Positions 13,199 through 15,568 of a stretch of DNA of 64,000 nucleotides are shown here, in pieces. The position numbers and the translations under genes are program-made. This stretch comes from Myxococcota bacterium (GTDB taxonomy: Bacteria > Myxococcota_A > UBA9160 > JAFDDA01): NCBI GenBank assembly GCA_965228475.1, contig OZ245817.1:4000001-4064000 (forward strand), given 5' to 3'. The notes beneath the pieces were generated by a model. It was not told where the DNA came from. It searched no databases and saw only the letters and a list, made by a program, of their open reading frames with translations. How positions within the stretch are numbered: the stretch's first letter is position 1; each line of letters opens with the position of its first letter.

Positions 13199-13719
13199 GC
13201 CGGCGCTTCGGGCCGATCCGACAGAACGGCTACGTCGTGCGCGACATCGAGCGCGCGCTCGCGCACTGGACCGAAGAGCTCGGCGTGGGCCCCTTCTTCT
13301 ACTTCGAACGCGTGCCGATCGAGGACTTCCGCTATCGCGGAGAGCCCTCGGACGTCGAGGTCTCGATCGCCCTCGCGAACTGGGGAGACCTGCAGATCGA
13401 ACTCATCGAACAGCGCAACGACGCGCCCTCGATGTACCGGGACTTCCTCGCCGCCGGCCACGAAGGGCTCCAGCACGTCGCGTGCTGGTACGAGGACCTC
13501 GACCCCGTCTTCGAGCGCCTCGCCGCCGAGGGCACACGCATCGGCCAGCAGGGGAACATCGGCGAGCGTGGCCGCTTCGCGTACCTCGAGACCGAGGCCC
13601 ACCCGGGAACGATCGTCGAGGTCTCCGAGGTCGGAGGGGGCAAGGGGCGGTTCTTCGAGCACATCCGCCGCTGTGCCGCCGAGTGGGACGGGAGCGAGCC
13701 GATCCGCCCCGTCGGGTAG
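13195..13719 (+). CDS. VOC/glyoxalase family protein
   Basis: IRQNGYVVRDIE, QIELIEQ, GLQHVA, IVEV; GTGA overlap with upstream gene. Confidence 0.85.
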   Translation: MSRRFGPIRQNGYVVRDIERALAHWTEELGVGPFFYFERVPIEDFRYRGEPSDVEVSIALANWGDLQIELIEQRNDAPSMYRDFLAAGHEGLQHVACWYEDLDPVFERLAAEGTRIGQQGNIGERGRFAYLETEAHPGTIVEVSEVGGGKGRFFEHIRRCAAEWDGSEPIRPVG

Positions 13720-13755
13720 CTCCGACGCGGACCTCAGGCCCCTCCGACGCGGCCT

Positions 13756-14331
13756 TCAGGCCCGGAAGGCCGTCTCGAGGACCTTGTAGACCTGCTCTTC
13801 CTCGCGGGAGACCTTGTTCCCGATCCCGAGGAACCCGCCGGCCGCCTCGGCGACGTCGCGCGCGCGGGAAAGGACGTCGCGCTTGAGGGCCTTGCGCTGG
13901 TCCGGCTCCATCTCCTCGCACAGCACGCCCACGTACTCGCGCCAGGCGGCCAGGAGCCGCGGCGGCGGCCGGTGATCGAGCCAGTCCGCGAGCATCGTTC
14001 CCGAGGGCGAGTCCGGCGTGAGCCCCTGGGCATCCGCGGCCTTCTGGATCGCGGCGCGCTCCTTCTCGTCCACCTCGCCGTCGGCCCAGGCCACCTCGAC
14101 GAGCGGCACGATCGTCATCGCCGTCAGGGTCTCGGCGTTGATCCCGAGCTCGACGAGCTTGTCGAGGACCGCTTCGTCGTGGATGCCCGAGGCCGCCCCC
14201 AGCTCCGCCTTCGCTTCGGTCGTCATCTTCTTCTGCCGCAGCTCCGCCGCCAGCCGCTCGTTCTCCTTGCGGAAGAACTCCTCTTCGAGCGCCTGCCGGC
14301 GATCCTTCAACACACCACCGTCCTTGGACAT
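13756..14331 (-). CDS. Hypothetical TerB-like protein with charged N-terminal helix
   Basis: VEVAWADGEVDEKERAAI and VAEAAGGFLGIGNKVSREE, typical of TerB-like folds; GAGGAGG SD. Confidence 0.7.
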   Translation of the reverse strand: MSKDGGVLKDRRQALEEEFFRKENERLAAELRQKKMTTEAKAELGAASGIHDEAVLDKLVELGINAETLTAMTIVPLVEVAWADGEVDEKERAAIQKAADAQGLTPDSPSGTMLADWLDHRPPPRLLAAWREYVGVLCEEMEPDQRKALKRDVLSRARDVAEAAGGFLGIGNKVSREEEQVYKVLETAFRA

Positions 14332-14546
14332 CGAAACGCGCACCTCCTCTTGGGACGAGCATAACCGGGCACACCGCCGGGGAAAGCGAGCGCGGAACGG
14401 TGGCATTTCACCCCGAAACTGGGAACCGCACGGCCGGAGCTGCGCCTCAGGCGTCATTTTCTGCCGACCGCGTCCGCAAGGAACGTTAGGATCGCCGCTG
14501 TTGGCCGCGTTTCGCGCCAACGCCATGAGAGGAAAAGGGGGTCGAA

Positions 14547-14735
14547 ATGGCGGAAGACGTGCTGGTCGTGGCTTCGAAGCTCAAGGGCTACATCCGCGAC
14601 AAGTCCGGAATGAACACCTCGGCCTCGGTCCTGACGGCCTTGTCGGACCGGATCCGTGAGCTTTGCGATCAGGCCATCGAGAATGCCCGGAACGACGGCC
14701 GCAAGACCGTCAAGGATCGCGACTTCGGCGGCTGA
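14547..14735 (+). CDS. Bacterial histone-fold protein (Bd0055-like)
   Basis: 62 aa: LVVASKLKGYI...MNTSA...AIENARNDGRKTVKDRDF; RKTVxxxD loop-2/helix-3 histone signature; AGGGGG SD. Confidence 0.88.
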   Translation: MAEDVLVVASKLKGYIRDKSGMNTSASVLTALSDRIRELCDQAIENARNDGRKTVKDRDFGG

Positions 14736-14815
14736 GCTCGCTCGACGAGACGGGGCGCGTGGGGTCTCCCACGCCGTCCCGGGCTCGCCTCCCCTGCGCC
14801 CGCCGAGAATCCACG

Positions 14816-15568
14816 ATGCAGCTCCTTTCGGGCGCCCGCGCCGTCTTCTTCGACCTCTTCGACACGCTCATCCAGATCGATGAAGCGCGCCTGCCGCCCC
14901 TCAAGGTCGCGGGACGGCGTCTGCGCAGCACCGTTCCGATCCTCTACGAAGATCACGTGGCCGAACGCGGCATCGCGCGCGAGCGCTTCGTGGAAGCCCT
15001 GCGCGACACGATGATCGAGATCGGGCAGGAGAAGAAGCGCAACACCGACGAGGTGCCGGCGCTGGTGCGCTGGCAGCGCGTGGTCGCGCGGCTCGAGTTC
15101 GAAGACGGCGACGGCGGCGAAGCGCTCGCACACACCTTGACCGAACGCCACGCGCGCACCCTGGCCGAGGCGGCCATCCCGGTGCCCCGGGCACGCGAGG
15201 TGCTCTCGGCGGTTCGCGACCGCGGGCTCGACGTCGCCCTGATCTCGAACTTCGACCACACGCCCGCTGCGGACTGGATCCTCGAGGGCACCGGCCTCGC
15301 GGACCTGATCGAAAAGCGCGTGATCTCCGAGGCCGTCGGCGTCCGCAAGCCCGACGAACGCATCTTCCGGGAAGCGCTCGACCACTTCGAACACGAGCCG
15401 GCCGCCTGCGTCCACGTGGGCGACCAGGCCCGCGCGGACGCCTGGGGCGCGGGGCAGCTCGGGCTGCGCGGCGTCTGGATCAACCGTCACGAAGAGCCCT
15501 ATGCCGAAGAGGGCCCGCCGCCGGCGCTGGTGATCTCGCGCCTCGCCGACCTGCTCCAGCACTTCTAG
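14816..15568 (+). CDS. HAD-superfamily hydrolase
   Basis: FFDLFDTL, LISNF, KPDERIF, HVGDQARADAWGA. Confidence 0.9.
   Translation: MQLLSGARAVFFDLFDTLIQIDEARLPPLKVAGRRLRSTVPILYEDHVAERGIARERFVEALRDTMIEIGQEKKRNTDEVPALVRWQRVVARLEFEDGDGGEALAHTLTERHARTLAEAAIPVPRAREVLSAVRDRGLDVALISNFDHTPAADWILEGTGLADLIEKRVISEAVGVRKPDERIFREALDHFEHEPAACVHVGDQARADAWGAGQLGLRGVWINRHEEPYAEEGPPPALVISRLADLLQHF

Follow-up and report, generated by a model that had tools for sequence, protein, structure and literature searches.

A 62-residue HBb-type histone in an uncultured Myxococcota genome with two further histone-fold genes

Among described bacterial histones, the closest to the protein considered here is HBb (Bd0055) of Bdellovibrio bacteriovorus HD100, for which both crystal structures and DNA-binding studies exist (Hocher et al., 2023, PMC10627809; Hu et al., 2024, PMC11317129). 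Like the present protein it stands alone, with no further domain; its solved chains (8fvx, 8fw7, 8cmp, 9ezz, and 9f0e) are 58-66 residues long, and are deposited in the PDB under the name "CBFD_NFYB_HMF domain-containing protein." Simulations of HBb gave a DNA bend of 84 degrees across 36 bp (PMC11317129). Schwab et al. (2024, PMC11390915) used sequence clustering to set up a "bacterial dimer" category of histones, for which they report no confident multimer above the dimer, and catalogued such proteins for Myxococcota_A and Myxococcota. Face-to-face (FtF) histones have been catalogued for Myxococcota, and Schwab et al. show a Haliangium ZZ histone (D0LYE7, Haliangium ochraceum) as a figure example; the C-terminal domain of ZZ histones is described there as "bacterial-dimer-like." HLp of Leptospira perolatii (9qt0-9qt2), an FtF histone, forms tetramers that wrap ~60 bp of DNA (PMC12701072). 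In a full-text search on HBb-type or bacterial-dimer histones of Myxococcota, the matches listed were these papers and their preprints; supplementary tables may list the present lineage.

The gene described here occupies positions 14547-14735 on the forward strand of the window, a stretch of 64,000 nt from the genome of an uncultured Myxococcota bacterium (contig OZ245817.1). This genome consists of one contig of 5.0 Mb with 70.5% GC, and its ribosomal protein L2 has its closest matches, at 79-83% identity, among proteins labelled by NCBI as from Myxococcota or Deltaproteobacteria MAGs. Unlike that of HBb, the host is not a predatory Bdellovibrio. The protein is an intact member, by sequence and by structure model, of the HBb/Bd0055-type bacterial dimer histones. 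As the family was characterised and catalogued between 2023 and 2025, Myxococcota included, it is an ordinary further member, and its value lies in its context: a single complete genome in which each of the three alpha3-truncated histone types of bacteria occurs beside HU/IHF proteins. Probably, it is a dimer that bends DNA in the manner of HBb and serves as an accessory nucleoid protein.

The 62-codon gene and its product

Read from the sequence, the ORF at 14547-14735(+) comprises 62 codons between an ATG start and a TGA stop. An in-frame TGA at 14526-14528, six codons 5' of the ATG, makes a longer form impossible, and the product is therefore the histone fold alone, with no extra domain. 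Its computed mass is 6.8 kDa and its computed pI 7.9 (11 K+R vs. 10 D+E), against a median pI of 8.89 in 51 aligned relatives. A stretch of 10 kb contains 69 ORFs of at least 40 amino acids; chance alone gives many short ORFs in DNA of 70.5% GC, so the case for a gene rests on homology, third-position GC, and conservation across phyla. GC3 is 0.86, with codon position 2 at 0.43. In a collection of 5.8 billion proteins, all 1271 scored candidates are homologues at E ≤ 0.001 (best E 1.4e-29); among clusters at 50% identity, 605 match at E ≤ 0.001, 272 of them at E ≤ 1e-10. The ORF proposed in an earlier, sequence-only reading of this DNA is accordingly real, and its translation agrees letter for letter. 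That reading had also supposed that gene callers would easily miss so small a gene; the identical 62-residue sequence is already present in the public protein collection, with cluster mates named "histone H3/H4" (JGI) and "hypothetical protein [Myxococcota bacterium]" (NCBI), so this one was not missed.

A phmmer search against every PDB chain puts HBb/Bd0055 entries first (8fvx, 8cmp, and others; E 1.6e-12); the alignment spans 57 residues, of which 29 are identical (51%, by count). The next is HLp of Leptospira (9qt0, E 3.6e-7), and archaeal histones are marginal (HMfB, E 0.11); the alignment to Bd0055 and HMfB that had been proposed as a check is thus strong to the former and marginal to the latter. 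Three stretches given in the earlier reading as shared with Bd0055, LVVxSK, MNTSA, and DGRKTV, do all appear in the alignment to 8fvx/8cmp. A second proposed check, a search with histone-fold profiles, weighs against the reading: Pfam CBFD_NFYB_HMF (PF00808) and NCBIfam archaea_histone (NF043032), which derive largely from archaeal and eukaryotic histones, both match only over the alpha2-L2 half of the protein and stay below their curated cut-offs (16.7 bits vs. 21.4, and 26.4 bits vs. 50, respectively).

An AlphaFold2 monomer model built from an alignment of 51 sequences (pLDDT 90.1) has helices at residues 2-20 and 26-49 and a three-residue helical turn at 57-59. The top five Foldseek matches of this model in the PDB are all HBb (TM 0.80-0.83, rmsd 1.8-2.4 Å), followed by HLp (TM 0.78), HTkC, and archaeal and eukaryotic histones, HMfB among them (HMfA/HMfB TM 0.69). 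Together with the phmmer result, this upholds the identification of a stand-alone Bd0055/HBb-like histone. The features by which the family is recognised are found one by one. For the clustering-based "bacterial dimer" category, there is the phmmer match to HBb at E 1.6e-12 and a place among stand-alone forms on a tree branch labelled 98/90 (see below). The AlphaFold2 model has the alpha3-truncated fold, in which alpha2 is shortened and alpha3 is 3-4 residues long. The RKTxxxD motif and the RD clamp are present as R52-K53-T54-V55-K56-D57-R58-D59, and the basic residues and S-K motif of alpha1 as S10, K11, K13, and R17, the logo's K17 being replaced by Arg, if the numbering of the family logo (K11, K13, K17) is assumed to equal that of the 62-residue protein.

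Residues for DNA contact and for multimer formation

HBb and the Myxococcota protein share the single-turn alpha3, the S-K motif of alpha1, the MNTSA sequence in L1 and DGRKTV in L2, and the RD clamp with its additional Asp. By the phmmer alignment, a position in the 62-residue protein is the HBb position plus one. In the simulations of Hu et al. (2024, PMC11317129), DNA is contacted most by HBb residues N22, R57, S9, T53, T8, S24, K10, K12, K52, and K16; their equivalents here are N23, R58, S10, T54, A9, S25, K11, K13, K53, and R17. Eight of the ten are therefore identical, one is a conservative change (K16 to R17), and one is altered (T8 to A9); these two substitutions, the lower pI, and confinement to two families of its order (see below) set the protein apart from HBb. 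The HBb clamp, R51/D58 with the extra D49, corresponds to R52/D59 with D50, and the dimer-core residues L31, I35, and L38 to L32, I36, and L39. S10, A43, A47, R52, and T54 are the same in all 51 homologues, which come from many phyla, and L6, V8, K11, K13, T24, L32, K53, V55, D57, R58, and D59 are conserved in at least 90% of sequences.

By analogy with HBb, two chains would pair through antiparallel alpha2 helices into a histone-fold (handshake) dimer. Such a dimer would bind DNA without sequence preference, touching the backbone and the minor groove with residues at the N-terminal end of helix 1 (S10, K11, K13, R17) and in the L1/L2 loop pairs (N23, S25, K53, T54, R58), which the R52-D59 clamp and D50 would presumably fix in position. 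Its expected effect would be to bend the DNA, with neither tetramer formation nor nucleosome-like wrapping.

Homology, fold, and the conservation of contact and clamp residues are matters of observation, as is the absence of tetramer residues, which the protein has in common with HBb. In HLp tetramers, R49, S52, and N53 contact F63, T61, and R55, and R49, N53, and R55 are conserved in tetrameric forms (PMC12701072). Of these three, only R55 is present here, as R52. In place of R49 the protein has N46 (S45 in HBb), and in place of N53 it has D50 (D49 in HBb); the dimer-dimer residues of FtF histones, R48/N52 in the FtF logo and R49/N53 in HLp, are accordingly absent. Hocher et al. (PMC10627809) introduced S45F, A48H, and I61L into Bd0055 to give archaeal-type contacts, and the three positions are N46, N49, and G62 in the Myxococcota protein. 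HMfA and HMfB (1a7w, 5t5k) resemble it in the histone fold, the RxTxxxxD loop, and the clamp, at the sequence and structure scores given above for archaeal histones (E 0.11, TM 0.69), but its alpha2 is shorter, its alpha3 is a single turn, and the His-based contacts of the archaeal four-helix bundle are absent; hypernucleosome formation is therefore not expected.

Two other modes of DNA binding have to be weighed against bending. In the first Bd0055-DNA crystal structure (Hocher et al., 2023, PMC10627809), dimers bind end-on through L1-L2 contacts, one per 2.5 bp, in a nucleohistone filament, and the Myxococcota protein could likewise coat straight DNA without bending it: the L1/L2 residues are conserved, as is the hydrophobic N-terminus (AEDVLVV here, AEVL... 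in Bd0055). The same authors state, however, that filament formation in vivo is not established (PMC10627809), and bending by HBb in solution has since been reported from TPM, ligase circularisation, and molecular dynamics (Hu et al., 2024, PMC11317129); filament coating is accordingly rated unlikely. Less likely still is the wrapping of ~60 bp by HLp-like tetramers. HLp and the 62-residue protein do have in common a truncated alpha3, a shortened alpha2, the RD clamp, and the RxT loop in L2, and HLp is the next-best structure match (TM 0.78) and a significant sequence match (E 3.6e-7), but of the tetramer residues just the clamp arginine is in place, the bacterial dimer category is reported without confident multimers beyond dimers (Schwab et al., PMC11390915), and the R-x3-N-K-R pattern, with a basic tail, is already found in a separate gene of the same genome (C1:4526890-4527108(-)). 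It is because the interface residues are missing that tetramer wrapping is unlikely. The sequence-only reading had argued against tetramers from the shortness of helix 3. Its conclusion agrees with the absence of interface residues, but the reasoning is incomplete, because HLp-type histones have an equally short helix 3 and yet form tetramers (PMC12701072).

Histone-fold paralogues and the rank of the 62-residue protein

A count of paralogues, also proposed in the earlier reading, gives three histone-fold genes in the genome, of stand-alone, ZZ, and FtF type, beside two HU/IHF-family genes. Genome scans with PF00808 and DUF1931 yielded no further histone-fold paralogue. The ZZ-type gene (C1:2359416-2359934, forward strand, = L002:1165-1683) lies outside the window and encodes 172 amino acids: an N-terminal domain with six Cys and two His (pLDDT 84-98), a low-confidence or disordered linker, and a C-terminal HBb-like histone domain. 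The last is 57% identical to the 62-residue protein over 56 residues, and superposes on HBb with a target-normalised TM of 0.87-0.92. Pfam does not recognise the N-terminal domain; among the Foldseek matches listed, the non-histone ones are all p62 ZZ domains, and these are weak (E 0.2-0.27). The gene fits the published "ZZ histone" type. Compared with ZZ histones, the 62-residue protein has neither the N-terminal zinc-finger domain nor the linker.

The FtF-type gene (C1:4526890-4527108, reverse strand, = L126:1498-1716(-)), likewise outside the window, encodes 72 amino acids with a basic, Lys/Arg-rich N-terminal tail (pI 10.9). It was found only with a profile of the 51-sequence alignment (A1; E 0.002). 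Its R-x3-N-K-R-K-T pattern agrees with the tetramer residues of HLp at each position. Among PDB chains it is matched best by HTkC, a face-to-face histone from archaea (E 0.002), and 1205 of 1207 candidates are homologues.

The three types are unequally spread. In a set of 41 genomes of the same order, its own included (G000), representing 12 families, the 62-residue query matched 33 genomes at 41 places, all of which were classed by the in-frame upstream sequence, with a zinc-finger pattern devised for the purpose. The stand-alone type is found at eight places in eight genomes, belonging to just two families, f1 (three genomes) and f10 (five genomes); a further place is a contig-end fragment of this type (L121). 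ZZ-fused forms account for 30 places in 28 genomes, and two places are unclear, one apparently frameshifted and the other cut by a contig end. FtF-type genes occur in 39 of the 41 genomes, and in 29 of the 30 of those that are at least 90% complete. This uneven distribution (FtF 39, ZZ 28, stand-alone 8 of 41 genomes) offers a natural comparison of how bending, wrapping, and zinc-finger-fused histones might share the organisation of a nucleoid. Two places in two genomes of one family, L117 (G025:C86:1316-3105) and L119 (G018:C87:4885-6671), have a ZZ frame that contains two tandem HBb-like folds joined by a short Pro-rich linker, which would be a ZZ-plus-doublet architecture. In the search of representative sequences, too, many proteins matched over two stretches.

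A search of public sequencing data for the locus returned three DNA or contig sets from two studies and no RNA run. Codon usage was compared as a log-ratio between eleven ribosomal-protein, elongation-factor, and rpoA genes and 2336 long ORFs, a proxy that discriminates weakly at 70.5% GC, is noisy for 62 codons, and can serve as a hint only. Scored as whole genes, the 62-residue histone falls between the distributions for background and ribosomal genes, at the 79th percentile, the ZZ gene at the 6th, the HU/IHF genes at the 55th and 92nd, and the FtF gene at the 99.7th. Of background segments of 62 codons, 36% reach or exceed the score of the stand-alone gene, and only 7.7% of those cut from the highly expressed genes are as low. 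The FtF gene thus has ribosomal-protein-like codon usage and the stand-alone gene is unremarkable; the ZZ value is in keeping with a report that the ZZ histone of Bdellovibrio is expressed at a low level (PMC11390915).

From the presence of this one gene, the sequence-only reading had concluded that the organism has histone-based chromatin. In its strongest form this would make the 62-residue protein the principal chromatin protein, as Bd0055 is in Bdellovibrio. It has a good Shine-Dalgarno sequence and stands alone among housekeeping genes, it is strongly conserved between members of its family (84-85% identity to two relatives), and its codon score exceeds the genome median. Weighing against this are the restriction of the type to families f1 and f10, in eight of 41 genomes of the order; the small share (7.7%) of 62-codon ribosomal and elongation-factor segments with scores as low; the two HU/IHF genes; a pI of 7.9; and a tailed FtF-type histone with ribosomal-protein-like codon usage, its type present in 39 of the 41 genomes. 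A principal role is therefore doubtful, and the distribution, the codon usage, the HU/IHF genes, and the FtF histone taken together mean that the 62-residue gene does not demonstrate histone-based chromatin, which is not to be read from a single small gene. Phyletic counts and the noisy codon measure suggest that it is most likely an accessory nucleoid protein, and weakly favour the FtF-type histone as the more likely main histone of the lineage.

Genomic setting and origin of the stand-alone type

On its 5' side the gene has a divergent intergenic region of lower GC (63.5-65.5% across 14200-14800). A Shine-Dalgarno-like sequence, AAGGGGGT, at 14535-14542(+), already noted in the sequence-only reading, lies 4-5 nt before the ATG and would by its position be a ribosome-binding site; in an alignment with two relatives of the same family, a G-rich block is found in the same place. 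Further upstream, the alignment of the three family genomes has a conserved block (...CGACCGC... / ...GGTAGGAT) that includes a weak candidate -10 element, TAGGAT, at 14487-14492(+). As a consensus sigma-70 scan of 13600-15000 returned no promoter-like sites, this is a lead only. Starting 16 nt 3' of the stop codon, a GC-rich hairpin without a T tract (14751-14781(+)) has a 13-pair stem in the minimum free energy fold; it could be a terminator or a stabiliser, although it is not significant against shuffled sequences (z-score -0.28) and was not reported by the terminator scan. The single terminator-like site which that scan did report, a short hairpin followed by CATTTTCTGC at 14442-14454(+), is ~95 nt 5' of the histone start, and sites of its type are no commoner than in shuffled sequence.

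On the 5' side are thyA, folA, and genes for Hsp33, a LiaF-like protein, and a glyoxalase, followed by a divergent TerB-like gene; on the 3' side are genes for a HAD hydrolase, GreA, a SpoU methylase, a desaturase, and UvrA. With housekeeping neighbours such as these, no tRNA in the first 30 kb of the window, and no match to integrase, transposase, or other mobile-element families among the window ORFs scanned, the gene does sit in core genome, as had been supposed. The order TerB-like/histone/HAD/GreA recurs in just two other genomes, both of the same family (L003/L086 and L004/L087), and was not found at the other loci fetched; because synteny is limited to one family, the neighbours give no clue to function.

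The nearest relatives outside the family are many stand-alone HBb-type genes at 69-79% identity, in MAGs whose records are labelled Gammaproteobacteria or Chromatiales; the closest of all carry Gammaproteobacteria labels and are 74-79% identical. The loci with these labels are L006-L020, L024, L025, L033, L036, L042, and L046; Gammaproteobacteria are not among the phyla in which Schwab et al. describe bacterial dimers as "predominantly found" (PMC11390915). Stand-alone genes of f10, within the order, are 65-70% identical to the 62-residue protein. A tree was made from 118 rows and 58 columns, with the contig-end fragment L121 left out and the duplicate rows L003 and L004 dropped (L003/L086 and L004/L087 are pairwise identical in the histone domain). 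In it, a branch labelled 98/90 holds 79 rows, stand-alone forms plus five flagged as ZZ by the pattern, apart from most ZZ forms of the order. The 62-residue protein groups here with stand-alone forms of many phyla, in what is internally a polytomy. A single clade of f1 and f10 is not rejected by an AU test (p 0.466), the group having been named after the tree was seen. Vertical descent with losses and horizontal transfer are both possible origins for the stand-alone type in these two families.

If the three histones work together, one could picture a nucleoid with a wrapping core of FtF-type histone, a ZZ-fused paralogue, and an HBb-type bender that joined the set in two families only, perhaps through transfer; this picture is improbable. 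The 62-residue protein might also pair with the ZZ paralogue's histone domain in a heterodimer that would anchor the zinc-finger domain on DNA; alternatively, it might modulate the putative wrapping by the FtF-type histone.

One of the same-family genomes that shares the TerB-like/histone/HAD/GreA neighbourhood (G002, L004/L087) carries the record label "uncultured Spirochaetales bacterium," and is probably a mislabelled MAG.
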